64,000 nt of DNA. Source: Mobula hypostoma. Its lineage: Eukaryota. The DNA lies in the NCBI RefSeq assembly GCF_963921235.1, contig NC_086097.1, positions 16,368,001 through 16,432,000 of the forward strand, read 5' to 3'. This document shows positions 16,161 through 57,281 of the stretch, in pieces. The translations under genes were made by a program, and so were the position numbers. The number at the start of each line of letters is the position of its first letter. Position 1 is the stretch's first letter. Under the pieces are notes generated by a model. The model made no database searches. It worked only from the letters and a program-made list of their open reading frames with translations, and was not told where the DNA came from.

Positions 16161-17307
16161 GGCCTGTGTATTTATAATTGGCTTCGCCTGTGTAAACACA
16201 AGACCTCTTTTGCAAAATTTACCACCAAGTTCTAGAGCTAGAAGTCAGAGAAATTGAATTTCACCAGCAGAATTATTATACAGTTGTTCATTGTAAACAA
16301 CTGAGATGACAATTTCTATCAGCTGATTTTCATCTTGTGTAATGAATATAATGCTGTCTGTACAGGTACAGAATAATTCACAAGGAGCACACGGAACGGG
16401 AAAGCCACAACAGGAAGAAAGGTTGCAGATTGATGTAGGATTAGTGTATAAAATTCGAAGGAATTTTATTATTAAAGTATGTGTGTGTCACCAGAAACTA
16501 CCCTGAGACTCATTTTCTTGCAGGCATTCACAGTAGAATGAAGAAATGTAATGAGAAACAAATAATAATAAATAAATGATAGATAAATAAGTAAACGAAT
16601 AAATATTAAATACTGAGTTGTAGAATCCTTGAAAGTGAGTCCATAAGTTGTGGAATCAATTCAGTGTCGAGGTGAGTGAAGTTATCTACGCTGGTTCAGG
16701 AGCCTGATGGTTGAAGGGTAATAACTGTTCCTGACCCTGGTGATGTGGGACCTAAGGCTCCTGTACACCCTGCCTGTATTAGTGAAAACAGGTCCTTGAA
16801 GGTGTCCATGGACCCTGTGACTTGTAGGGCCAGTTTCTGTGCTGTATCTCTCCATGCCTCTGACTCTTAAGAAAAGTGAGGACTGAAGTGATGACCTGGT
16901 AGAATTCTTTAAGATTGGATATAGGCATGTTTCCATTGCAAGAGTGTTCAAAATCTTCATGTTGGCAATGACCACCAACATTCCAGTAAGAAATCCAGGA
17001 AGAAGAATGGGTATGACCTCAGTACAGACTTGTTAGCTTGAATGGTCTTGATATTTGTAGTTGCTGTAAATGCAAAATACATTCTCTAAGAAAATAACTT
17101 TCTTTTCAAACTATTCAGGTCTCCTGGTCTTCCTCTTCCTGACTTTGAAAGGATGTATCCGTAGTGCTTGAATCTGTGGCAATGCAGGAATACCTCAGTT
17201 CATCTCTCCTGTCCTTGAAGCCTGTACAAAGAAGCTTCAACTTGCAAGTCAGAACTCCCTTTAATCATTGTGTCCCTAGGCAAGGTGGAGAACCCTCAGC
17301 TTATGCA

Positions 17308-18924
17308 ATGAACCTCAACGTACCTGAACAGAATGCAAGCAATTCCAACAACGGCTACGTGGAGGGAAGTCAGACAAATCTGCTTCATGCGCACCTGAAA
17401 AGGAACACCTTTGAAGATCCAGTGTCATCCTACTCCAGCAGGGATATTATTTCGCAGTTTCTGGAGAAATCCTCCAAGAAGAAGAACTCAGCCGATCATG
17501 AGCTAATCTTCTCCGCAAAGAACCTGTCCCGCTCCACTGCTGACTCATTCCAAGAGGAGAGCAACAGTAACTTCTCCAAAGACGGCGGGCAGGACCCTGG
17601 CTTGTCTTTCGCTCAGCATCCCTCAACAAACCCAGGTGAAGGGGATCGATTGTTTAACGAACATTTGCAAGCAAAGAGGGCGAGAGTGGAGAACATCATC
17701 CGCGGAATGAACAGTTCTCCGACTGACAGCCTTCACCACAGTGAGCTCGAGAGGGAGGGGGGTCAAAGGCGAGGAAGCCTGAACCTGTGCAAGGAGAACA
17801 AGCGGAAGCAGAGGCTCCCACAGCAGCAACAGCAGGAGCAGAATCCCGGGAAGAGCCCTGGTCTAGTTTCGTCCCTCAAGCAGCTTAGGAGAGAGGAGTG
17901 CCATAGGCTGAAGCAGCAGCTTCAGGAAATGCAGGGCAGGCTTCATGAACTTCAGGAAAAGTTTTTCCAGGTATACGATACAAGTGAATCCGAGCACGAG
18001 GACCAAGAGGACGCATCTGACTCCTGTTTCCATTTGGCTAGTACTGAGTACGGAGAAAATACCATGGAAAAGTATCACAGTGACCTTCCAGACATGGACC
18101 AGAGTCCCTGTATTGACCACATTCAGACAATTGGCCATGAGAAAGAAATGACACCCGGAAAGGAAGCAAGTAAGCATCATGATGCGGGCAAAAAATTCAA
18201 CCGTTGTAATAGTTATGGTTTCTCTTCAGTGGAGAGTGGATATCTCGCAGAATCTCTGAAATATGAGCTGACCAATGCAGTGGCTCACATCGTAGACTCG
18301 GCCGTACAGTTGTTCTCTGTAACACCTTCCCCCACTTCTTCTCAGTCATTTCAAAGTTTGCCGGCCTCCAGGTCCAAGAGCACCCCACAAAATGGTAATA
18401 CAACCCTGAGGATGCCGAGTCATGACTTCCAGTGTTCCTCAGACCCAGTGACGATGCATCAGTACTTTGACAACTGTCAAAACCCTTGTACAATCCAAGC
18501 TCATGATCAGACGGAAGCAATACCACTGGTGGTGAGAAAGTCACCCCAAAACCAGTCTAATCTTGTTGGTCCAATTATTAAACAGGGCTGTCAAATGCCG
18601 CATAACAAACCACCATTAACATTGGTTCTGGACTCCCAGATGTCTCTGACTGAATTGCCTGACCCCATTTTGAGATACAACATGCAGAATTACATAGGAC
18701 ATACCTTCGCTGTAACTACAAAAGACAATGTTGCTTCTAAGCCAACGTGCCTTTCATGGGACACTGTCAAACTGAGGTCAAAGGTTACCTCGCACCACAC
18801 AGCCCACCAGTTGTATCCAGGTTTCCGGCAAAAACCACCACAGAATCTCAATCTTTCTCACATCAAGTCCGAATGTGGGGAGCCGCGATCCATGGTGGAC
18901 ATCACTCCATACTCATCGGCAAAC
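17308..18924 (+). CDS. PROX2: Prospero homeobox protein (PROX2-like), first large coding exon
   Basis: Part of the 595-aa ORF 17164-18951. Carries PROX-family motifs EHLQAKRARVENIIRGM, KENKRKQRLPQQQQ, a coiled coil LKQQLQEMQGRLHELQEKFFQVYD, LAESLKYEL, QTEAIPLVVRK and HIKSECG. It lacks the PROX1 N-terminus (MPDHDS...), hence PROX2-like. Start taken as ATG 17308 (MNLN...); an in-frame ATG also lies at 17182. Ends in phase 0 at AAC|GTATCCTTT. Candidate upstream acceptor ttttcaaactattcag ends at 17118. Family call is secure; paralog identity is less so. Confidence 0.88.
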
Positions 18925-19034
18925 GTATCCTTTCCAAATGTCGTCTTGTGAAGTTACAGAACGTTAGAAAAATCTTGCATGTGTTAGAACATGGTTGGAA
19001 TTTCACTCCATGCATGCAAACTTCACCACCATCA

Positions 19035-19685
19035 CAGGTAGATAGGGACGTAAAGAGAGTTTGATACATTAGCCTGCATGAATCAGGGCGCTGAGTACAG
19101 GAGTTAGGATGTTATGCTTATGTTGTACAAGACATTAGTGAGGCTGAATTTAGATTATTGTGTGCTATTCAGTCACTTACTCACAGCAAAGTTATCAGTA
19201 AGCTTGAAAGGGTGCAGAGAACATACACAGGGATGTTTTCAGAACTTGAGGACTTGAGTTACAGGGAAAGGTTGAATAAATTTGCATTTTAATCCCTGGA
19301 ATGCAGGAGGACACAGGGAGATCTTATAGAAATATACAAAATGATGTGGGGTACAAATAGGGTAAATATAAGCAAGCATTTTTCCTCTCAAGCTGGGTGA
19401 GACTAGAACTAGAGGTCAGAGGTTTACGGTGAGAGATGAAATATTTGAGGGGAATCTGAGGGGAAATCTTCACTCAGAGAATTGTGCAAGTGTGAAACAA
19501 GCCTCCAGCAGATGTGGTAGAAATGTGTTCAGTTGTAACACTTAAGAGGGGTTTGGACAGGTACGAGGATGGGTGGGGTTTGGAGCGATATGGAGATATG
19601 GTCCAGGTGCAGTAAAATGAGACTAGGCATAAATATGGGTCAGCATGGAGTAGATGGGCTGAAGTGCTGTAGTACTCTATGACTC
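19035..19685 (+). mobile_element. CR1 3' fragment just inside the U12 intron
   Basis: Decayed ORF2 C-terminus and a tactctatgactc tail, similar to other CR1 copies here. Confidence 0.75.
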
Positions 19686-20149
19686 CCTCGTGATTACTTC
19701 TTACGGTGTCAAGGAATCCCATTTCCTTTTCCTCTGGCTTCCCATCTTCTCAGAATGATTTTGATACTTCAGCAATACTGAAGCAATACTGTTGCCTCAC
19801 AAACTCCAACCAAGTGCATTAGTTTTGCTGAAATTAATTTCAATTACATTATTTATAACTGTGGTAATCAGTACACCAACCTAATAAATTCATTCTTGGG
19901 TATTAGACCTAGATGACGTGACTGGGCCAATGGTGCAGAACCCAGGTCAAACTACACGACTAATAAAATAAAAATAAGAGCAGCTATTTTTACGCAGCAT
20001 CTTGCACTGAAGCTTCAGATAATGCTTTGGCCACAAAATGAATCATACCACTGCAAGCATTTATAAATTCTGAGGAGCTCTAACCGATAACACTTATATG
20101 ATGTCAGATAAGCAGATATTGGGGTAAAGGGACTGAGGCACTGTGGTTA

Positions 20150-20787
20150 TCTTATAACCATATAGCAATTACAGCACGGAAACAGGCCATCTCGGCCCTT
20201 CTAGTTCATGCTGAACTCTTACTCTCACCTAGTCCCACCGACCTGCACTCAGCCCATAACCCTCCATTCCTTTCCTGTCCATATATCTATCCAATTTAGC
20301 TTTAAATGACAACATCGAACCTGTCTCAACCACTTCTGCTGGAAGCTTGTTCCACACAGCTACTACTGTCTGAGTAAAGAAGTTCCCCCTCATGTTACCC
20401 GTAAACTTTTGCCCTTTAACTCTCAACTCATGTCCTCTTGTTTGAATCTCCCCCATTCTCAATGGAAAAAGCCTATCCACATCAACTCTATCTATCCCCC
20501 TCATAATTTTAAATATCTCTATTAAGTCCCCCCTCAACCTTCTACGCTCCAAAGAATAAAGACCTAACTTGTTCAACCTTTCTCTGTAACTTAGGAGATG
20601 AAACCCAGGCAACATTTTAGTAAACCTCCTCTGTACTCTCTCAATTTTATTGACATCCTTCCTATAATTCGGTGACCAGAACTGTACACAATACTCCAAA
20701 TTTGGCCTTACCAATACCTTATACAATTTCAACATTACATCCCAAATCCTATACTCAATGCTCTGATTTATAAAGGTCAGCATACCA
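20150..20787 (-). mobile_element. CR1 3' fragment with an uninterrupted 184-aa ORF2 C-terminus
   Basis: ORF 20229-20783(-) includes LVRPNLEYCVQFWSPNYRKD. Confidence 0.9.
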
Positions 20788-22269
20788 TCTTACCTTGTGA
20801 ATAAGCCAGATGGCTAGACACTTGCTTCTAATGACTGAGTTTAAAAAGAATATTTTGATAAATGTTACAACTGAATATTTTATATAGGAAAGAAGCCACG
20901 GCCTTTTATAGATTGGGATAGGCCTGACACAAAATGACTATTTGATTAAGACAGTACTACTCGAGCAAAATGCTGTCCCAGCTTCAATTTGAATGACCAC
21001 AGGTAGCAATTGTCCCAGTGACCTTAAACCTCATCAGAAACTTTCCGCTAGCCCTCCCTTGCCTGTCCTGCCTCCTAACCGTGGCTCCTTCTGAACTTGA
21101 GCTCTTAACAAGCTTCGAAGTTGATATCTCCATCTTACATGTCTGACCCCCTTCTCCCAACCGCTTTTGCAGAATCAATCAGCCACACTTAACTAGCGAT
21201 GGTCAAACTTCAAAGTATCTATATCTTACCATATACAAGATTCACTTTCTTGCAGTCATTCGCAGTAGAACCAAGAAATACAACAGAATCAATGAAAAAC
21301 TACACAGAGGTAAAGACTGACAAACAAAAGAAGACAAGTTATGAAATTATGAAAAGGAACAAATAGTAATAAATAAATAATGCTAGGAACATGAGTTACA
21401 TGGTCCATGAAAGTGAGTCCATAGTTTGTACATGATGTCAGAGTTGAGGTGAATGAAGTTGTCCACACTGGTTCAGGCTAATTCTGATCTGAAATAAGAT
21501 GGTGGTTGCTTGGTCAGTCAGTGGTGAGAATATTGAAAAAAGGCAGCACAAGAAGATGGGTGGAATAGAGGCACAGTCAGAAAGGACAAAAGCAGCGGCA
21601 ACAGGAGTGGATGGGACTTGCTACCCACCTTGCCTCAGTCCAAGGTCGCTTATCTTTGAGTGAGTGCTACGTCTGTTCCAGTGTGAGTTCGATTACTTGG
21701 CAGAACCAGTGCTGGTAGCCGTCATCTACCTCAGGAATGTAGCCAGGATGCACTGCGTGGACTTGCTCCTACTTGTCACTGCTTGGCATTATTGCCAGTA
21801 GAGCTCAAGGAACTTAAAAATAAAATTTCCCTAAAATAAGGTGGTACTTACGACAGCTAACAATCTGGAACTGATTCAGTCCCAGCCCGCAATACTCTCA
21901 GTGCTGAGGGCTTGTCTATAGTGAAATCATCATTTGGGTTGGACCAGAACACGTTCCACACACACCGGAGAGTTATGCCATACTCCTCAGTTATTTTATA
22001 TGGTACATGACTGACATTTTCCAGTTTGAGAAGGAGCTCACCTCTAAAGAAATGGAGATGTGAAGGGTCTCAGTAGCCACCACTGAAATGACTCTTGAAT
22101 ATTCAATGATAACTGTCCATCTATCCCTTTGCACGGCGGGGTGGGGGGGGGTGCTGGAATATTCCTGGGACTACCCTCTGCATTATGTTGCTACAATCAG
22201 CAACCTAGTGTAAGAAGGTGGTTGATGTGCACCAAGTGAGAACACAAGAAACAGACATTAAGTTAGACC

Positions 22270-22445
22270 ATTTCGCCCCAATGAGCAACACCTCATATTC
22301 CGTCTGGCTCGACTCCAACCTAATGGCATGAACATAGATTTCTCTATCTTCTGGTAATTTCTCTCCTCTACTTCTCTCTTTTCCCATTTCCCATTCTAGC
22401 TCCCTTCTTACCTTTCTCTTCTCCTCTCCTGCCTCTCACCTCCCT
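22270..22445 (+). mobile_element. Penelope-like short fragment
   Basis: gagcaacacctcatattccgtctgg...ctccaacctaatggcatgaacatagatttc matches the end of the PLE ORF. Confidence 0.6.
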
Positions 22446-23494
22446 CGAGGTAGAGATTTATACACTTTAGGATATTAAGGGATTCAAGGGTAGTGCAGGA
22501 GAGTGTCATTGAGGTATAGCTTCAATGGCAATCTGATGGAACGATGAGCTGGCATTGAGGACTAACTGGTCTAATTCTGCTTATGTTTCTTGCATTCTCC
22601 CTGGGGGAGTGGCGTGTATGAAGACTTACCCTTTTCAGCATTCCTGGAAAATAGGAAGCTGTTTATTTCAGTCCATAAAGCCATAAGGTATAGGAGCAGA
22701 ATTAGGCCATTTGGCCCATCGAGTCTGCTCTGCTATTTCATTATGGCCGATCCATTTTCCCTCTCAGTTTCAATCTCCTGTCTTCTCCCCGTATCCTTTC
22801 ATGCCTCAACCAACCAAGAATCTATCAAACTCTGCCTTAAATATACCCAATGACTTGGCTTTCACAGTGACTTGTGCTTCTATTATTAAAATGATCATAA
22901 ATGGGAGGAGGTATGGAACATGGCTACTATGTGAAAGTTAGTGCTGTCTGATCTCTAACTCTTTTCCTTGCCTTTTGTATCGACAAAAGAGGCATTTTTC
23001 CTAAATTGGCATCCTTTAAGAATGCTTTGGAGGGTAAATCTTTCAGTTACTTGTTTACAAATGCCAATTTAATGAGGCAAATTCCATTGCAGATGCCTGG
23101 CCACATTTCTGGATCCAGTGTTCATGTCAAAAAATACGAGGCACTATTTATTTGGTGTCACAGGTACATCAGGTGAAAAGGGGCAGGAGAGGCGGAAATG
23201 AAGAAACCCCCTGCAGGGATGGGTGGAGCACAGCGGGCAGTTACATTTTAGTCTAGTGCTTAGGTGAAATTTAGTACTTTATACTTTATTGTTGCCAAAC
23301 AATTGATACTAGAACGTACAATCATCATAGCGATATTTGATTCTTCCTGCTCCCTGGATTACAAATTGATAGAAAATATTAAAAATTTAAATTATAAATC
23401 ATAAATAGAAAATAGCAAAATGGAAAGTAAGGTAGTGCAAAAAAAAACCCGAGATGCAGGTCTGGATATTCCACAAGCTTATTCCACTGGGAAA

Positions 23495-24500
23495 TAGTCA
23501 TAGTCATAGTCATAGTCATACTTTATTGATCCCGGGGGAAATTGGTTTTCGTTACAGTTGCACCATAAATAATGAAATAGTAATAAAACCATAAATAGTT
23601 AAATAGTAATATGTAGATTATGCCAGGAAATAAGTCCAGGACCAGCCTATTGGATCAGGGTGTCTGACCCTCCAAGGGAGGAGTTGTAAAGTTTGATGGC
23701 CACAGGCAGGAATGACTTCCTATGATGCTCTGTGTTGCATCTCGGTGGAATGAGTCTCTGGCTGAATGTACTCCTATGCCCACCCAGTACATTATGTAGT
23801 GGATGGGAGACATTGTCCAAGATGGCATGCAACTTGGACAACATCTTCTTTTCAGACACCACCATCAGAGAGTCCAGTTCCATCCCCACAACAACACTGG
23901 CCTTACGAATGAGATTGTCGATCCTGTTGGTGTCTGCTACTCTCAGCCTGCTGCCCCAGCACACAACAGCAAACATGATAGCACTGGCCACCACAGACTC
24001 GTAGAACATCCTCAGCATTGTCCGACAGATAGACAATAGACAATATACAACAGACAATAGGTGCAGAAGTAGACCATTCGGCCCTTTGAGCCTGCACCGC
24101 CATTCTGAGATCATGGCTGATCATCTACTATCAATACCTGGTTCCTGCCTTGTCCCCATGACCCTGGATTCCCCTATCCATAAGATACCTATCTAGCTCC
24201 TTCTTGAAAGTATCCAGAGAATTGGCCTCCACTGCCTTCTGAGGCAGCGCGTTTCACACCTCCACAACTCTCTGGGAGAAGAAGTTCCTCCTCAACTCTG
24301 TCCTAAATGACCTACCCCTTATTCTTAAACCATGCCCTCTGGTACTGGACTCTCTCAGCATCTGGAACATATTTCCTGCCTCTATCTTGTCCAATCCCTT
24401 AATAATCTTGAAGGACCTCAGTCTCCTCAGGAAATAGAGACGGCTCTGACCCTTCTTGTAGACAGCCTCAGTGTTCTTTGACCAGTCCAGTTGTCCAGAC
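23495..24500 (-). mobile_element. Rex1/Babar-like LINE 3' fragment with a CR1 piece inside (~24030-24410)
   Basis: MLRMFYESVVASAIMFAVVCWG...RKSFLPVAIKLYN and a (catagt)n tail at 23495-23521. Confidence 0.8.
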
Positions 24501-25559
24501 CAGACAAGGTTTCATCTGGAAACATTGATAATTCATTTCCATCCACAGAGGCTGCTCGACCTTCAGAGTTTCTCCAGCGCCTCAGAGGCAGCTTGCTGAT
24601 TATGGGAACAGGTTCAGACTTTTCAGATAGTCAGTAATTTCCTGTCCGGAGACCTCAGCTAATTGAAAACATCACAGCAGATTCAGCCAATTCAATGACA
24701 TCCTCTACTGCCTGGACAACAGTTCTGCATGCAAGAAACATGCCCTTTGGATATACTTTCCATCCACCTTGATACTCCTGCGCCCTGGTATGTACCCATC
24801 CCAAGTCCTTGGAGAAGAAAACAAAAGCAATAATATATTTGAGAGGAAAAGAACAGCAACTTTAAACAGAAATCCATTAAGTGAATTGTATTCTGAAACT
24901 GAATTGCAAAGTCTTTTGTTTTCTTGTTTGCTTAATATGTAAATAGACATCATTTCATTAAAGTGGATTAGGCATCTGTAAATGAATGGAGTGTATTGCT
25001 ATATAAAAGAAGGTTCTCTGGTACTCACAAGGAGATGTGAGTGGCTGTGAGCCTTTCATTGCTACTTGGTACTCCAGGCCCACTATTGTTCCAGCCAGTT
25101 TCTGATGCTAATGCAGGCAACATCCGCTCCTTCCCAGCTGCCAATATCCCCTTACATGCTCAATCACAGAGGAGCAATGAAAAATATACAAGGTTATATT
25201 TTTCTTCATTTAACAGGCAAACACACCTCTCAAATTATAATTTCAATCAAGGTTTACAGCATCACAGAAAGGGTCAAAAATCTTAAGTGGGTTACACAAA
25301 CAAAATGCTGGAGGAACTCAGCAAGTCAGGCTGCATCTGCAGAGGGTCCAGTCCTGTAGAAGGGCCTTGGCCCAAAACGTCGAAGTTCAAAGCAAATTTA
25401 TTAGCGAAGTATGTATATGTCACCATGTACTCCCCTGAGATTCGTTTTCTTGCAGCCATTTATAGGAAAACTAAGAAACACAATACCAGGGGTGATTGAT
25501 AAGTTTGTGGCCTAAGGTAGAAGGAGTCAATTTTAGAAAACCTAGCACATTTATTTTTC

Positions 25560-26499
25560 AAGCAACACACATAAAAGTTGCTGGTGAATGCAGCAGGCCA
25601 GGCAGCATCTCTAGGAAGAGGTGCAGTCGACGTTTCAGGCCGAGACCCTTCGTCAGGACTAACTGAAGGAAGAGTGAGTAAGGGATTCGAAAGTTGGAGG
25701 GGGAGGGGGAGATCCAAAATGATAGGAGAAGACAGGAGGGGGAGGGATGGAGCCAAGAGCTGGACAGGTGATAGGCAAAAGGGATACGAAAGGATCATGG
25801 GACAGGAGGTCCGGGAAGAAAGACAAGGGGGGGGGGACCCAGAGGATGGGCATGGGGTATATTCAGAGGGACAGAGGGAGAAAAAGGAGAGTGAGAGAAA
25901 GAATGTGTGTATAAAAATAAGTAACAGATGGGGTACGAGGGGGAGGTGGGGCATTAGCGGAAGCTGGAGAAGTCGATGTCCATGCCATCAGGTTGGAGGC
26001 TACCCAGACGGAATATAAGGTGTTGTTCCTCCAACCTGAGTGTGGCTTCATCTTTACAGTAGAGGAGGCTGTGGATAGACATGTCAGAATGGGAATGGGA
26101 CACGGAATTAAAATGTGTGGCCACTGGGAGATCCTGCTTTCTCTGGCGGACAGAGCATAGATGTTCAGCAAAGCGGTCTCCCAGTCTGCGTCGGGTCTCG
26201 CCAATATATAAAAGGCCACATCGGGAGCACCGGACGCAGTATATCACCCCAGCCAACTCACAGGTGAAGTGTTGCCTCACCTGGAAGGACTGTTTGGGGC
26301 CCTGAATGGTGGTAAGGGAGGAAGTGTAAGGGCATGTGTAGCACTTGTTCCGCTTACACGGATAAGTGCCAGGAGGGAGATCAGTGGGGAGGGATGGGGG
26401 GGACGAATGGACAAGGGAGTTGCGTAGGGAGCGATCTCTGTGGAATGCAGAGAGGGGGGGGGAGGGAAAGATGTGATAGGGAGCGATCCCTGCGGAATG
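25560..26499 (-). mobile_element. Penelope-like retroelement, 3' part: GIY-YIG endonuclease plus terminal repeat
   Basis: ORF 25954-26523(-) contains CKRNKCYTCP...FTCELAGVIYCVRCSRCGLLYIGETRRRLGDRFAEHL, a PLE-type GIY-YIG domain. It is followed by a pyrimidine-rich UTR and the terminal repeat seen many times in this window. Flanked by duplicated tttatttttc (25550-25559, 26500-26509). Confidence 0.88.
25624..25661 (-). ncRNA. Minimal type I hammerhead ribozyme in the PLE terminal repeat
   Basis: Minus strand reads UAGUC-CUGACGA-AGG GUCUCGG CCU-GAAA-CG-UC^GACUG. This gives stem I (AGUC/GACU), the CUGANGA box, stem II, GAAA, a palindromic ACGU mini stem III and a GUC cleavage triplet. Same strand as the PLE ORF. 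Confidence 0.8.
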
Positions 26500-29400
26500 T
26501 TTATTTTTCCTACATTTACACACTTAGTCCAGTGGTCGTGGAGCATACGTATCTCTTCTTTGTAGAAGTCGGCGTCTTGGACCTCCAGAAAATGGTCCAC
26601 AGCAGGGGTGATTAATAAGTTCGTGGCCTAAGGTAGGAGATGAGTTGCTAACTCAAACTTTCTGCATTTTCACTCAAGGAGTTGAACTGCATGTGCATAT
26701 AATGAGAGCTGTATAACTCATCTCCTTCTACCTTAGGCCACAAACTTATCAATCACCCCTGCTGTGGACCACCTGGAGGTCCTAAGTGCTCTCGTTACAT
26801 GCACGTGCAGTTCAACTTTTTGAGTGATAATGCAGAAGGTTTGAAGTTAATAACTCGTCTCCTTCTCCTTTAGGCCACAAACTTATCAATCACCCTTGCT
26901 GTGGACCACTTCTACAAAGAAGGGATCTGTATGCTTCACAACCACTGGACTAAGCGTGTACATGTAGGAGGGGACTATGTTGAAAAATAAATGTGCTAGG
27001 TTTTCTAAAATTGACTCCTTCTACCATAGGCCACGTACTTATCAATCACCCCTCATAGAACCAATAAGAAGTTATACATAAACGAAGACTGACAAACATC
27101 CAATGTGCAAAGGAAGACAAATTGTGCAACTATAAAACATAAATAGTAAACATGTAACACTGAGAACCTGAGTTGTAGAGTCCTTGAAGTCCACAGGTTG
27201 TGGAGTCAGTTCAGAGTTCAGGAGAGTGAGGTTGTCCACATTGGTTCAGCAGCCTGATGAATGAAGGGTAATAACTGTTCCTCAGACTGGTGGTGTGGGA
27301 CCTCAGGCTCCTCTTACCCTCTGGTAAGAGAGCATGGCCTGGATGATGAGGGCCCCCGATGATGGATGTGCTTTCTTGTGGCAGGGCTCCTTATAAATGC
27401 GTTCAATGGTCGGAGGGCTTTGCCTGGGATGAACTGGGTTGTATCCATCACTTCCTATAGCCTTTTCCATTCTTGGGCATTGGGGTTTCCATTACAAGCC
27501 TTGATCCAACCAGTCAAGATGCTCTCCACTGTGCATCTATAGAAGTTTGTTAAAGTTTTAGATGACACACCGAACCTATGCAAACTTCTAAGAAACCAGA
27601 GGCGCCGTTGTGTCTTCTTTGTGATGGCACTTATGTGCTGCTTTTTCTCCGCCACAGGGTGCTGTCAGACCTGTTGAGCTCCTCCAGCATTTTGTGTGTG
27701 TTGCTCAAGTTTTAAAGCATCTGCAGAAACTCTCGTTTTTAAGTGGGTGACAGTCTGAGTTCATATATGGATTCTTCAAAAGTGTTTTGGATCCCGCATG
27801 ATCCTATAATGATTACCTCAAAAATCTCTAATGAGTTAATTAAATTTTAATGTGTAGCCAGGATAATGGTCACCAGTGTGAAGATGATGGATTGTGTGAG
27901 AGGTGCTGAGTAACGGATACAGAGAGTTGGGCGGCATTTACATTAAAAAAGACTCTGAAAGAGGAATGGAGGATTCCATTTATAAATGGAGGCAACACCC
28001 CCTTCAAGATATTTCAAAATGCTTTAAGGTCAATTAAATAGCTTTAAGTGTTGTAATGTTGGTAACACTGTCAATTTGTACACAAAAGCTGTGATAAACA
28101 ACATTGTGACAATTACTAAAAATGTACTGTATTGCGCAGTCAGTTGAAGGATAATTATCAGCAGGACCCTGGAGATAAACTTCTCCAGCCTCCTTCAGCA
28201 TAAGGCCATGAAACCTGTTCTGTTCACCAGGTCACCAGAGGGGGAAGATGGATTTTGGGTTGAATATTTCATTTGAAAGACAGTGCAGCATTTCTTCAGT
28301 GATGACTTGTGGTAAGAATGCACAAAGCTTATGAGCAGCAGCTGAGGTTTAACTCGACAGAAAAAAATGAATGCACCAGGTGTGTGTGTGTGAAACTACA
28401 CAAACTGAGCTGAGAGCAATTTCACTTTCTGTGTGTCTGTATTCTGTAATGCAGGAATATTCTAAAACTAGTGATTAAATTCCTTTCCTAGAGTTCTGTT
28501 TGAACTGTTTCATCATTCCCAATGGATTATCAAGTCAGGTGCAGTAAACCCCAATGTAGCCTCTTCTGGTGAGATGACCCATTCCACTTGTGCTGTCCTT
28601 GCAGTAAATATGGTCCAACTGTGTAATGTACTTCACAGATCATTCATTGACAACAATGCATTAGCCAACAGGTTGGAGGAGGGGTGGGATGAGTGACTCA
28701 CTGGAAACAGTACAAAGAACTACAGGAAATAAAACTTACTCAAAGAGCAAACTTTGAAGTACAGTATGAGTAGAAATTTACAGTAATTCTGTCAACAAAA
28801 GCAGAGTAACTTTTGACAAAAACCACAGTGGGTAGACGGTGACTGCATTCAAGTTATGTGCTCAAAATTAATCTCTGTCAGTAATGGCAGCCTGGTCACC
28901 GAGCTGGTCTGACAGGGGAACTACTCAATCATCTCTACTTTTTTTATGTTTGCCACAATGGCTAAGTTCAGTGTAATAACATCTTTATATTTATTTATTT
29001 ATTGAGATTCCGCGTGGAATAGGCCCTCCCGGCCTTTCGAGCCACGCCGCCCAGCAATCCACAATTTAACCCTAGCCTAATCATGGGACAATATACAATG
29101 ACCAATTAACCTACGAACGGGTACATCTTTGGAATGTGGGAGGAAACCAGAGCACCAGGAGGAGACCCATGTGGTAACGGGGAGAACATACAAACTCAAC
29201 ACAGGCAGTGGTGGGAATTGAACCTTGGTCTCTGGTACACTACTGTACCGCTCCAAATAAAAAGAACACTAATAATTTAGTAATTAGACTAAGTAAGAGG
29301 CTATTTTTAGTTGGCGTGCCTCCCATCTTCTGGAGGGTAACGATAACAAGATAATTACAACAAAGGTTCCCATCGTGAACTAAAATCTACCCTTACATTA

Positions 29401-29579
29401 GTTCTAAGCTCTTCTCAACAGAATCATCTCACAGAAAATGACAGGGTCTGTTATTTTCTAACCTGTCATTATAAAGTACACTTGAGAGTGTGCCTGAAAT
29501 ATACTCGACTCACTTTCAGAGGAGATTAAGTCTCGTGCTTTAAGTCCACATTCATAAAACCCATCTCCATCCATACATA

Positions 29580-30953
29580 CACTCAGTAGCTACTTTATTA
29601 GGTATACCTGCTTGTTAATGCAAATATCTAATCAGCCAATCATATGGTGGCAACTCGATACATGAAAGCATGCAGACATGGTCAAGAGATTCAGTTGTTC
29701 TTCAGAGCAAACATCAGAAAAAGAGGAGGAGCTTAGGAGGATTAATGGCTCCTAATGGCAACTCCTTTGCTTGTGTCTTTGGAAACAGCTCTACTTCCAT
29801 CTTTAATATCTCTATTTTTCCCTTTCACGGTTCTTTTGAAGATCCTGACCTGGAGTTACACACTGATTACGGTTCTTTGCGGGAATGAGACCCGCTCTCG
29901 GGGTTTCACGCCTGGCCGTTATTCAGCACGCCAAGTGCTCAGCTCGTCTTCGGAGGGCTGAGATTTCGTGGCTCTGGAGACGGGGGGGGGGTGGTGCGGT
30001 GGGAATCAAAGGTTGGTGTCACGGCAGGAGATTGGTGTGTTGTGGGAGATGGAAGATCTAAGGCTGCATGCCCGGAGACCTGAGATCTTTGGGCACAGAG
30101 CTCGGAAAAAGCGACGCAACGGACTTTTAACATTGTAAACCAGAGAAAAGTTTGTTATGTCTCCCCTCTTGCTGTAAAACAGAGACACCCTTTTCTCCCT
30201 TATTAGGGAGAGAGAGAGAGCTTGTGGTATGTCGAATGCCGGGTGAACAAGTAGTCTTTGGAGTACTGCAAGTCTGTGTCTTTGCTGTTGCTTTGCTCAC
30301 GCTTGAGTGCTCGGTGGCGGGTGCCGATGCTTTTATTTTTTCCGGTGGGGGGAGGAAGGATTGTTGCTTGCTGCCGCTTATGCGTGGGAGGGAGGGGAGC
30401 TGGGGGGGGGGACTTCGGGGTTCTAACATTTAACTGTCATTCATTCTTTGGGGGCACTCCTCCGTTTTCGTGTGAAGAAAAAGCATTTCAGCATGTATAT
30501 TGTATACATTTCCCTAACATTAAATGTGCCTTTGAAACCTTTTAATGGGGAAGAAATGTGACTTTGACTGTGGAATGATTGTTGGTGCCAGATGGGGTGT
30601 TTTGAATATCTCAAAAACTTCTGATCTCCTGGGATTTTCACATACAACAATCTCCAGATATTACAGAGAATGGTGTGAAAAATGAAGAAAAAATTCCAGT
30701 TAGCAGTAGTTCTGGGGGTGAAAATGTCTTGTTAATGAGAGAGGTCAGAGGAGAATGGCCAGACTGGTTCAAACTGACAAGAGGGTGACATTAACTCAAA
30801 TAACCACAACAGTGGTGTGTAGCAGAGCATCTCCGAATGCACAATGCGTCAAACCTTGAAATGGATGGGCTACACCAGCAGAAAACCATGAAAGTACACT
30901 CAGTGACCACTTTATTAGGTACAGGAGGTATCTAATGAAGTGGCTACTGAGTG
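29580..30953. mobile_element. Tc1-like non-autonomous element with an ~0.8 kb nested insertion (~29720-30545)
   Basis: TA-flanked TIRs cactcagtagctactttattaggta and tatctaatgaagtggctactgagtg. An extra left-TIR copy sits at 30897-30922. Confidence 0.75.
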
Positions 30954-31389
30954 TATATTCTAGAATATTCTATATAAAGATTCTGAATGAATAGTATCTC
31001 CAGACCACAGCAAGATTCTGCTGCAGACTCTCAGTCTGGACACTCCAATTCTGTAAGTCTAAAAGATGGCTTTTGCTGGTGCATTAGAACTGGAATATTC
31101 TGGCCTTTTTTAATTACACCTATCAAGTGTGTTGAGGATATCAATCGTTTCAGGCAAGAAGGGAGCATAGATGGAAATTCAGGTGACAACAGGAGGGAAT
31201 TGCAAGCAATTCAGGTTTTTTTTTTAAAAATATAGATGCGTCTTCTAGTTTTTAGTCAGTCTTAGTAAGAGACTTAAATTCACATTATAAAGCTGCACAT
31301 AAAAAACTCAAGTTGATGTTTCAATCAAAATGCATATGTCAAGTTATTTATACTTTATTTATTTATTTATTTTTATTTATTGAAATGTG

Positions 31390-31640
31390 GTGCAGAACAG
31401 GTCCTTCCAGCTCTTTGAGGCACGCCACCCAGCAACCCCCCGATTTAACCGTAGCCTAATCACGGGACAGTTTACAATGACTAATTAACCTACAAACTGG
31501 TACGCCTTTGGACTTCGGGAAGAAACTGGAACACCCGAAGGAAACACACATGGTCACGCGGAGAACGTACAAACTCCTTACAGAGAGTGGTGGGAATTGA
31601 ACCAAGGTCGCCTGTACTGTAAAGCTTTGTGCTAACCACA
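31390..31640 (-). mobile_element. HE1-like V-SINE (other copies ~510-690, 29010-29240, 43670-43810, 48470-48720)
   Basis: On the minus strand, gtaaggagtttgtacgttctccgcgtgaccatgtgtgtttcc...gtaggttaattagtcattgtaaa, which recurs across the window. Confidence 0.7.
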
Positions 31641-31859
31641 ACAAATATGGCAAGAACAGCGCATCAAACATTTCACAGCGATCACACCCAAATGAGACAA
31701 AACAAATGAAAAACATAATTTCCAACAGAACCAAGTTTCTTGGGCTAGACTAATAAAGTTCCAGGATTGCATTTGAATGTGAGAAAGATGCATACAACCA
31801 GTAATGATGCATTATTGAGATATTGGGTGTTACATAAAATCTTCTAACACCCTTAGTAA

Positions 31860-32164
31860 TGGCATCTGTTAGTCTTGCGAGACCATGGATCTGCGGCTGG
31901 AAAGTCTTCACTCTTCAGGGCGTGGGCCTGGGCAAGGTTGTATGGAAGACCGGCAGTTGCCCATGCTGCAAGTCTCCCCTATCCACGACACTGGTGTTGT
32001 CCAAGGGAAGGGCAAGGGCCGATACAGCTTGGCACCAGTGTCGTCGCAGAACAATGTGTGGTTAAGTGCCTTGCTCAAGGACACAACATGTTACTTTGGC
32101 TGGGGCTCGAACTCACGACCTTCAGGTCACTAGTCAAATGCCTTAACCACTTGTCCATGTGCCC
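31860..32164 (-). mobile_element. Second copy of the tRNA/RTE-tail SINE
   Basis: Reverse-complement match to 6775-7089. TSD acaccctta(g/a)taa (31847-31859, 32165-32177). Confidence 0.85.
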
Positions 32165-32464
32165 ACACCCTTAATAAGCCCAAGCATTATAAAGAGTTGA
32201 TTACTGTGCTGTGCCAATGGCTTTTAGGACTGCCTGGTAAAGGAAGCCATTGAAATAAATCTAGAGGAAAAGAATTTTAACAAAGACGAAGGTCTCGCTC
32301 TTTGTAAGAACTGGAATTTGATGTTACACAAGGTGGGAGAGCAGAAACCTGCTTAGATGGGGACTAACAAATCAGGAGGGATAGACTACGGGGGTAGAAT
32401 ATAAATGGTAAGACTTTTCCAGTGTGGAAGATCTGAGAGATCTTGGGGTTCGTGTCGGGCTTGA

Positions 32465-32590
32465 CATGCCAAGGCATCATCCCTGACGAAGATGGCAGAG
32501 TTTGTCATAAAAACTTTGGTTATAATCAATACTTGTACCTGGCTGGAAGCCTGAGAAGAATTTATTTGCCATATACGCTGGGAAAGCACT
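32465..32590 (+). mobile_element. Second-family PLE terminal repeat with a decayed hammerhead
   Basis: CTGACGA (32483), a long stem II (gatggcaga/tttgtcat) and a decayed GAAA box, followed by acctggctggaagcctgagaagaattt. Confidence 0.45.
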
Positions 32591-32594
32591 AGAT

Positions 32595-32790
32595 CCTTTT
32601 CTGATTGCTGCCTGTTACACTGCTGGCATTTAGGCAGCAGTGAGGGTCCTCCATCTCTGTCTGTCCTTGGCCATCTTCTCCATTGTGCCCCACATGTGGT
32701 TCAAGGTCCTCATTTCTGCCTCTATGGTATGGCACCAAGTTGTATTTGGTCTCCTGCGTTTCCTCCGCCCTTCGGGCATTACAGGACACT
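32595..32790 (-). mobile_element. RTE/RTE-X-like LINE 3' tip
   Basis: The minus strand encodes a basic C-terminal segment (...TTWCHTIEAEMRTLNHMWGTMEKMAKDRQRWRTLTAA) typical of RTE-type ORF ends. Confidence 0.5.
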
Positions 32791-33140
32791 CAAGAACATG
32801 ATATGTTGATTTACCTGAAATGTTGTCTTCTGGTTTGACTCTTGAATTCTAGTAACATGAAGCAGAGTTATATGTGTCCCGAGTTTTGAAATAATACCTT
32901 CTAGACTGGGGGGGCGGGGCTGCAACTTGAGGTCCACAGACTCCTTGGTTAATGGTAGGGGTCCACGACAGAAAGAAGTTTGGCAACCCTGTTCTGGACT
33001 CTTTTACTTTTGGATGTGGGTGGGATGAAATCTTTGAAACAGGTATAAAAAAATTATAAATCATTGTCAGTAGATAGAAGGGTCATTTAATGCTCTCTTG
33101 TCAAATTGATTATGATCGAATAACCTTAACCAGTCTTCTG

Positions 33141-33248
33141 ATTCAGGAGGGATTAACACCTAATCACTTGAAAAAAGCCAAGCTGATGTTCTTCTATACT
33201 CGATACCCCAACTCTACCACACTGAAAACGTACTTCTCCGATGTTAAG
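33141..33248 (+). CDS. PROX2: PROX2-like coding exon 2 (start of homeodomain)
   Basis: Encodes [36 protein letters not shown], closely matching the PROX homeodomain. Donor is AAG|GTAAGG at 33249. The 5' boundary is 33141 (after TG) or 33147 (after AG); both are in frame. Confidence 0.93.
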
Positions 33249-33812
33249 GTAAGGAAAAATCTTCATGGCACTATCCAGTTAAGAACAATTGAGAAGAATG
33301 TAGCACATTTGAAAGAGACTTGTGTTTTAGAGATTTACATGATAAAGGACAGTGGGTTGGAGACAATGCGTTTTGGAGGAACATGTCTGTCTGTGTCATA
33401 TGTTGTGCTATGCATGAATCTCCAATATTTAGGTGTGTGGCAGCCTTTAGTTTGAAAGCCAAACATCTTTAAAGCTGGGATGACTTTGCTGGAAATATAC
33501 TGAGCCTCATTTGTTTCCAGTCTCAGTGAGTGACTGAACCACTCAAAGTTCCGATGAACCCTTAGTTTACTGGTGGCATCAGCTAATCCCTTTTCCTTCT
33601 GTGTGACTTGTCACCTTTTTGAAAGATGGTCACTTCATCTACAGCAGGACAAGTGGCAAGATCTCTGCTGGAGCACTCACATTGCTGGGCAAAACACACA
33701 ACGGGGATGGGCACGATGAGACAAATTCTCAGGTGCAGAAGGGTGATATCCCTAGCAAAGGGACAGAAGGGTAAGGGATGCAAGTGCTTGCAATACTGTG
33801 AATCATTTAGAA

Positions 33813-57086: not shown

Positions 57087-57281
57087 TTTAACAGATGCAT
57101 CACTTCTCAACTTATCAAATGGTTCAGCAACTTCCGTGAATTTTACTACATCCAGATGGAGAAGTTTGCTCGGCAGGCTGTAAACGACGGCTTGACCGAT
57201 GCCAATGACCTAAAGGTGACGAGGGACTCTGACCTTTACCGAGCTCTCAATGGACATTACAACAAGGCCAATGACTTTCAG
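57087..57281 (+). CDS. PROX2: PROX2-like coding exon 3 (homeodomain recognition helix and start of Prospero domain)
   Basis: Not in the ORF track. A pyrimidine tract and taccag acceptor precede 195 nt encoding [65 protein letters not shown]. Donor is CAG|GTCAGT at 57282. Phase 0 at both ends. Confidence 0.95.

Follow-up and report, generated by a model that had tools for sequence, protein, structure and literature searches.

Intron 2 of the vertebrate Prox genes and of Drosophila prospero is a U12-type (minor) intron of the AT-AC subtype, which occupies the same place in both, where the homeobox begins, and is in phase 0 (PMC2956630, PMC2831892). AT-AC borders have been described for the fly gene and for human PROX1 (PMC2831892), and AT/AC has been stated for all vertebrate Prox genes at this intron (PMC2956630). 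In prospero, this intron is a twintron, with a U2 intron lying within the U12 one. A regulated splice choice there reshapes the N-terminal border of the homeodomain and concerns 29 amino acids, five of them in the homeodomain (PMC6865273). A human/cow sliding candidate in PROX2, with non-canonical sites, is also listed (PMC7730772).

An orthologous minor intron may bear altered terminal dinucleotides, a process known as subtype switching (Burge et al., cited in PMC2831892, PMC1557818 and PMC3584512). It is described as rare (PMC2831892), and no case was found in the insects treated in PMC3291851. This rarity has been ascribed to the poor splicing of the intermediates, the GT-AC and AT-AG pairings being disfavoured in minor introns (PMC3584512). 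Non-canonical minor introns, such as GT-TG, GT-GG, GT-AT and AT-AG, amount to about 4–5% (PMC1557818, Tables 2-3; PMC10639083). In one set of 770 minor introns, 555 are GT-AG and a single one is GT-TG (PMC13602164, Table 1). GT-TG acceptors are better known from U2 introns (PMC4176328).

The PROX2 Gene of Mobula hypostoma and Its Second Intron

The window analysed here, i.e., the whole stretch of 64,000 nucleotides, carries on its + strand a large coding exon (exon 2, 17149–18924) that matches the PROX2 protein of Mobula hypostoma (XP_062899037.1, P0122) at 539 of 539 residues. Among the 120 protein matches listed, the top 16 come from rays, sharks and chimaera and are named PROX2 or "PROX1-like" (48–92% identity), and PROX1 proteins rank next (32–36%). 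By sequence similarity, this gene is PROX2 (Prospero family, PF05044), set apart from PROX1a by best-hit ranking. The open frame of exon 2, taken from stop to stop, has 592 codons, with the RefSeq start methionine at 17308, and ends in ...SSAN, in phase 0, its final codon AAC ending at 18924. Exon 3 (EGLTP...SDVK, 33147–33248, + strand) holds the start of the homeodomain and is followed by a GT donor at 33249; exon 4 (FNRC...NDFQ, 57087–57281, + strand) has ordinary AG/GT borders. No last PROX2 exon was found within the 64,000-nt window. Intron 2 (18925–33146, + strand) is 14,222 nt long if it ends at the AG discussed below, and 14,216 nt long if it ends at TG. It also contains, at 25487–27065, clustered short direct and inverted repeats of up to 74 nt and 96% complementarity, which adjoin a retroelement-like frame.

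The donor GTATCCTTT (18925–18933, + strand, context AAC/GTATCCTTT) is a U12-type 5' splice site of the GT subtype and agrees with the consensus RTATCCTT (PMC3291851). Near the other end, the branch site ACCTTAAC (33123–33130, + strand) matches the consensus TCCTTAAC at seven of eight letters; it includes CCTTAAC (33124–33130), and its branch A is probably 33129. Taken alone, such 7-mers recur on the + strand of the window, with four donor-like and five branch-like matches. The pair is nevertheless not a chance occurrence because both elements flank coding exons at the known position of the Prox U12 intron (PMC2956630), which is shared in an alignment of 46 Prox proteins. Donor, branch site and position thus agree with the assignment made in the first-pass annotation, and on these sequence features the second intron of PROX2 in this ray belongs to the U12 type, with a predicted dependence on the minor spliceosome. 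Further perfect U12-like GTATCCTTT donors are found on the + strand at 22791 (inside intron 2), 11043 and 56008; their surroundings resemble one another (CCC(C/T)GTATCCTTT) and look repeat-borne.

Several dinucleotides on the + strand could close this intron. The first AG past the branch point (33132–33133) is only 4 nt away from the branch A and out of frame, as had been noted. A TG follows at 33139–33140, 11 nt from the branch A, then the six letters ATT CAG (33141–33146), which are former Ile-Gln codons and now probably the final six intron bases; they end in an AG (33145–33146), 17 nt from the branch A. The branch site, TG and AG were read in the window exactly as first annotated, and translation confirmed that a junction after TG gives SSAN-IQEGL and one after AG gives SSAN-EGL, both in frame. 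A third in-frame AG, absent from that annotation, ends at 33149 and would give SSAN-GL. The first-pass annotation favoured TG as the acceptor, as part of a working GT-TG intron, or else alternative acceptors giving two isoforms.

Which Acceptor Is Used in Relatives

Contigs of four of the 12 listed sequencing runs (X1, X2, X3 and X6) were compared over 33001–33300. Runs X1 (depth 13.5) and X2 (depth 2.4) have one contig each, and both contigs start at 33147, whereas neither starts at 33141. Their loose 5' letters correspond to the final part of exon 2 and encode the stingray-type peptide VDVTPYSSAN, which the Hypanus and Hemitrygon proteins share. They differ at 4–5 of 30 letters from exon 2 of the window. 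The junction is SSAN-EGL in both cases: the AG is used and Ile-Gln is skipped, in two organisms from two studies. It was read from the loose contig ends over the 300 bases around the acceptor rather than from a joint table. That these runs are RNA is a guess, but exons that lie 14 kb apart are joined in their contigs. Both contigs give spliced sequence rather than the genomic acceptor of these organisms, which may or may not carry a TG. Since contigs drop rare variants and each run has a single one, minor isoforms would be hidden. Run X6 covers a paralogue only and not the PROX2 acceptor. None of the listed runs containing PROX2 is on record as RNA; six further runs labelled as RNA have almost no matching words, which speaks neither for nor against expression.

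The preference for TG expressed in the first-pass annotation is thus not borne out in either relative, where exon 2 is joined to 33147 in two of two spliced contigs and to 33141 in none. This is the very outcome that had been named as refuting it, and it was observed in relatives of Mobula hypostoma rather than in the species itself. The evidence gives no support to a working GT-TG intron, and the main PROX2 product of Mobula hypostoma is predicted to read SSAN-EGL.

The TG itself is genuine. Record 4 of run X3, a DNA-like contig of another, related organism, covers 33066–33300 with seven other letters in 235. Five of these differences are listed (33117, 33215, 33221, 33252 and 33270) and none falls within 33118–33214; the two remaining ones are unlisted, as happens near contig ends. 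The branch site, TG and ATTCAG are unchanged in this contig. A sequencing or assembly error, with TG standing for AG or AC, had been considered at the outset and is now practically negligible, since this record lists no difference at 33139–33140.

Probable Traces of an Ancestral AT-AC Intron

The motif (I/M)QEGL, given for vertebrate PROX proteins in the first-pass annotation, is indeed widespread: of 120 listed homologues, 109 have the homeodomain motif intact (the 11 others were left out), and 94 of these show it. As a control, all 25 PROX1 models examined from cartilaginous fishes retain IQEGL. The two residues are missing in the RefSeq PROX2 models of six of nine batoid species (Hemitrygon, Hypanus, Amblyraja, Leucoraja, Rhinoraja and Narcine). 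The other three keep two residues, which counts against the use of AG: VQ and MQ in the two Mobula species, and IQ in Pristis (SLAT-IQ). RefSeq models favour GT-AG by design, and AT-AC sharks are mis-spliced to the same CAG (ISFLS-EGL), so that the six missing cases lend weak support. The Pristis pectinata model (P0002, SLAT-IQEGL), unlike those of other batoids, could reflect either a kept ancestral AT-AC intron or cryptic sites. Many public Prox models are mis-spliced at this junction (ISFLS, IYIQ, FYMQ, SGKGL), including P0006, P0007, P0009, P0015, P0056, P0058, P0064 and P0095, which is a recurrent annotation fault at AT-AC borders.

More direct clues come from models that read through the splice sites. 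The donor read-through VSF, which implies GT, is found in three ORFs of a skate cluster and in Rhincodon, and is the same as in the window. PROX1 instead gives ISF, which implies AT, as do the PROX2 models of Heterodontus, Heptranchias and Pristiophorus. GT is read directly from the DNA of the window and agrees with the skate-cluster read-throughs, while AT is deduced from the three shark PROX2 models. On the acceptor side, the chimaera PROX2 read-through SLTTLY-IQEGL runs in the same register as the window (TLTSLL-IQ), which places the TG at the conserved junction, as initially proposed. Since the branch site and spacing are also aligned, the CTG of the window stands in place of the chimaera Tyr codon. 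We infer that this codon was TAC, with an AC acceptor, that TG sits exactly at the ancestral AC position, and that the PROX2 donor changed from AT to GT in rays; the ancestral AT and AC are deduced here from the amino acids of read-through models and not from DNA. Two protein searches (65 and 57 matches), screened by residues or pattern counts, contained no read-through or spliced fragments from rays.

The PROX1a-type paralogue has apparently kept its original borders: contigs of runs X3 and X6 read TCCTTGAC...AC/ATA CAG, and the intron ends 15 nt past the branch A. Unspliced, fish-like prox1a-type ORFs (e.g., P0153, P0156, P0165, P0080, P0081, P0087 and P0092) have Gln right before IQEGL in 16 of 18 cases, and fish prox1a donor read-throughs give ISF. 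If this Gln codon is CAG, these protein models would point to a widespread AT-AG minor intron in prox1a, contrary to the AT/AC statement for all vertebrates.

A Probable Switch of Subtype and a Move of the Acceptor

The most coherent explanation, which we hold to be probable, is that intron 2 of ray PROX2 switched from AT-AC to GT-AG and that its acceptor moved six bases downstream. The ancestral intron would have read AT...AC/ATx CAG. An A-to-G change at its first base would have created the disfavoured GT-AC pair, and the minor spliceosome may then have taken the nearest in-frame AG within reach, i.e., the end of the Gln codon. The unused AC could subsequently have drifted to TG. TG is then most likely a worn-out old acceptor rather than an unusual working one. 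An equally possible order starts with a switch in place to GT-AG, giving a CAG ATT CAG tandem whose first AG would have been lost later. Both orders, capture then decay or switch in place, give the same end state. The change to GT-AG may also speed splicing; in a reporter, GT-AG minor sites outcompete AT-AC ones (PMC8280824).

The price would be Ile-Gln, lost from a flexible region that lies five residues ahead of homeodomain helix 1. The structure predicted for the Hypanus protein places the junction (N580/E581) at the close of a low-confidence stretch (495–580) and has helix 1 running from 585; this model is poor (mean pLDDT 44) and was used only for the start of helix 1. The 1MIJ chain starts two residues ahead of the G in EGL. 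As far as such models can tell, the structural cost of losing Ile-Gln is small.

One objection comes from spacing. The optimal distance between branch point and acceptor is 11–13 nt for U12 introns (PMC3584512), which the AG exceeds at 17 nt and within which the TG falls at 11 nt. The 15 nt that work in the PROX1a-type paralogue show that spacing beyond this optimum is tolerated, which makes the argument in favour of TG a weak one.

Other Readings of the Junction

The TG could still be a working site. It might take a minor but real share beside a main AG at 33146, giving isoforms with and without Ile-Gln. This dual use is unlikely, even if it has several points in its favour: besides its optimal spacing (PMC3584512), TG ends in G, the base required at the end of a GT intron, and both TG and ATT CAG are kept in the organism of run X3. 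Natural GT-TG minor introns are also on record (one in mouse, PMC1557818, Table 2; one in PMC13602164, Table 1), and U12 introns with more than one 3' site have been described, perhaps as errors (PMC3584512). However, no contig starting at 33141 was found in X1 or X2, U12 introns are described as strongly conserving the A at position -2 (PMC2831892), and at 97% identity the X3 sequence is too close to the window for its conservation to indicate constraint. For TG to be the main acceptor in Mobula hypostoma, with a protein keeping IQEGL like most of its homologues, would be very unlikely. The exact ancestral position of TG and its spacing fit such a GT-TG intron, as does the fact that the RefSeq model of the species avoided the plain GT-AG junction. 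However, the spliced contigs of both relatives skip IQ, a reversal in devil rays would be required, and the prior for minor introns that start with GT is 1 in 566 (PMC13602164, Table 1). In addition, the RefSeq protein has V at this place, where a GT-TG junction gives I and a chance micro-exon can give V.

Two micro-exon-like pieces are indeed present inside the intron on the + strand, a 9-mer coding VQE (30919–30927) and a 6-mer coding MQ (23454–23459). Both are flanked by AG and GT and reproduce the RefSeq residues of Mobula: the former can account for "VQ" in M. hypostoma, and a counterpart of the latter could account for "MQ" in M. birostris. The use of these pieces by XP_062899037.1 and XP_072107538.1 is presumed from the residues that they reproduce. 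That either one is a real exon restoring the lost residues is highly improbable. Against the two pieces observed, 200 resampled introns have a mean of 1.14 and at least one in 75% of cases; the models of the two Mobula species need different pieces; in such a splice the U12 donor would be matched to an acceptor devoid of a U12 branch site; and the contigs of the relatives have no insert. "VQ" and "MQ" are therefore probably annotation artefacts, to judge from sequence, which would make these two RefSeq proteins wrong at the junction. RNA editing and a shifted AT-AT border were also envisaged for the RefSeq "VQ" and dropped, a canonical micro-exon being simpler. The switch to GT-AG with a shifted acceptor is thus retained as the preferred reading.

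A Possible Second Switch in Carpet Sharks

Carpet sharks display partly similar signs, all of which rest on protein models of different species (P0012, P0011, P0132, P0014 and P0133). A GT donor read-through is found in Rhincodon, and the two residues are missing in the models of two Chiloscyllium species and of Stegostoma; the Hemiscyllium acceptor read-through LH-VQDGL fits a kept AC. From these models, the chances that carpet sharks and rays switched from AT-AC to GT-AG independently appear evenly balanced. A bolder scenario, which is decidedly unlikely, would see the Gln-codon AG as a ready escape permitting a switch by a single donor mutation, used twice (in rays and carpet sharks), with TG still in use in devil rays, so that PROX2 would have two forms distinct at the border of the homeodomain, in the manner of the prospero twintron of the fly.

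Comparison with Known Systems

The crossing from AT-AC to GT-AG is puzzling because both single-change intermediates splice poorly. If the preferred reading holds, this locus offers a datable natural case of another route, in which a downstream AG is captured and two residues are paid. The intron concerned ranks among the most conserved minor introns of animals, and the paralogue PROX1 and those sharks that have not switched serve as controls. There is also a practical side, since annotation pipelines invent micro-exons or read-throughs at the PROX2 junction. The finding is of moderate interest to minor-intron specialists.

In the literature searched, mostly main texts of open papers, no report of a PROX2 switch in rays was found, and the accessible parts of PMC11347168, PMC7367187 and PMC6865273 contain nothing on rays. 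Intron databases and Table S1 of both PMC10639083 and PMC7730772 may list it.

Ray PROX2 shares the donor core and the branch site of the vertebrate Prox and prospero intron (PMC2956630, PMC2831892), but differs from it in starting with GT instead of AT and probably in ending six bases later, at AG. If used, its TG would belong to the class of natural non-canonical minor introns; no such use was seen in the contigs of the two relatives. The twintron of prospero acts at the same intron, through a regulated choice between nested introns (PMC6865273), whereas for ray PROX2 the contigs display no alternative form and the change amounts to two residues. Subtype switching comes closest: the altered terminal dinucleotides of an orthologous minor intron are found here as in the described cases, which alter the letters in place (PMC2831892, PMC1557818, PMC3584512), whereas ray PROX2 would have moved its acceptor to another AG and lost two residues. 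The process is thus a known one, and what remains as new is a lineage-specific switch with a six-base acceptor shift.
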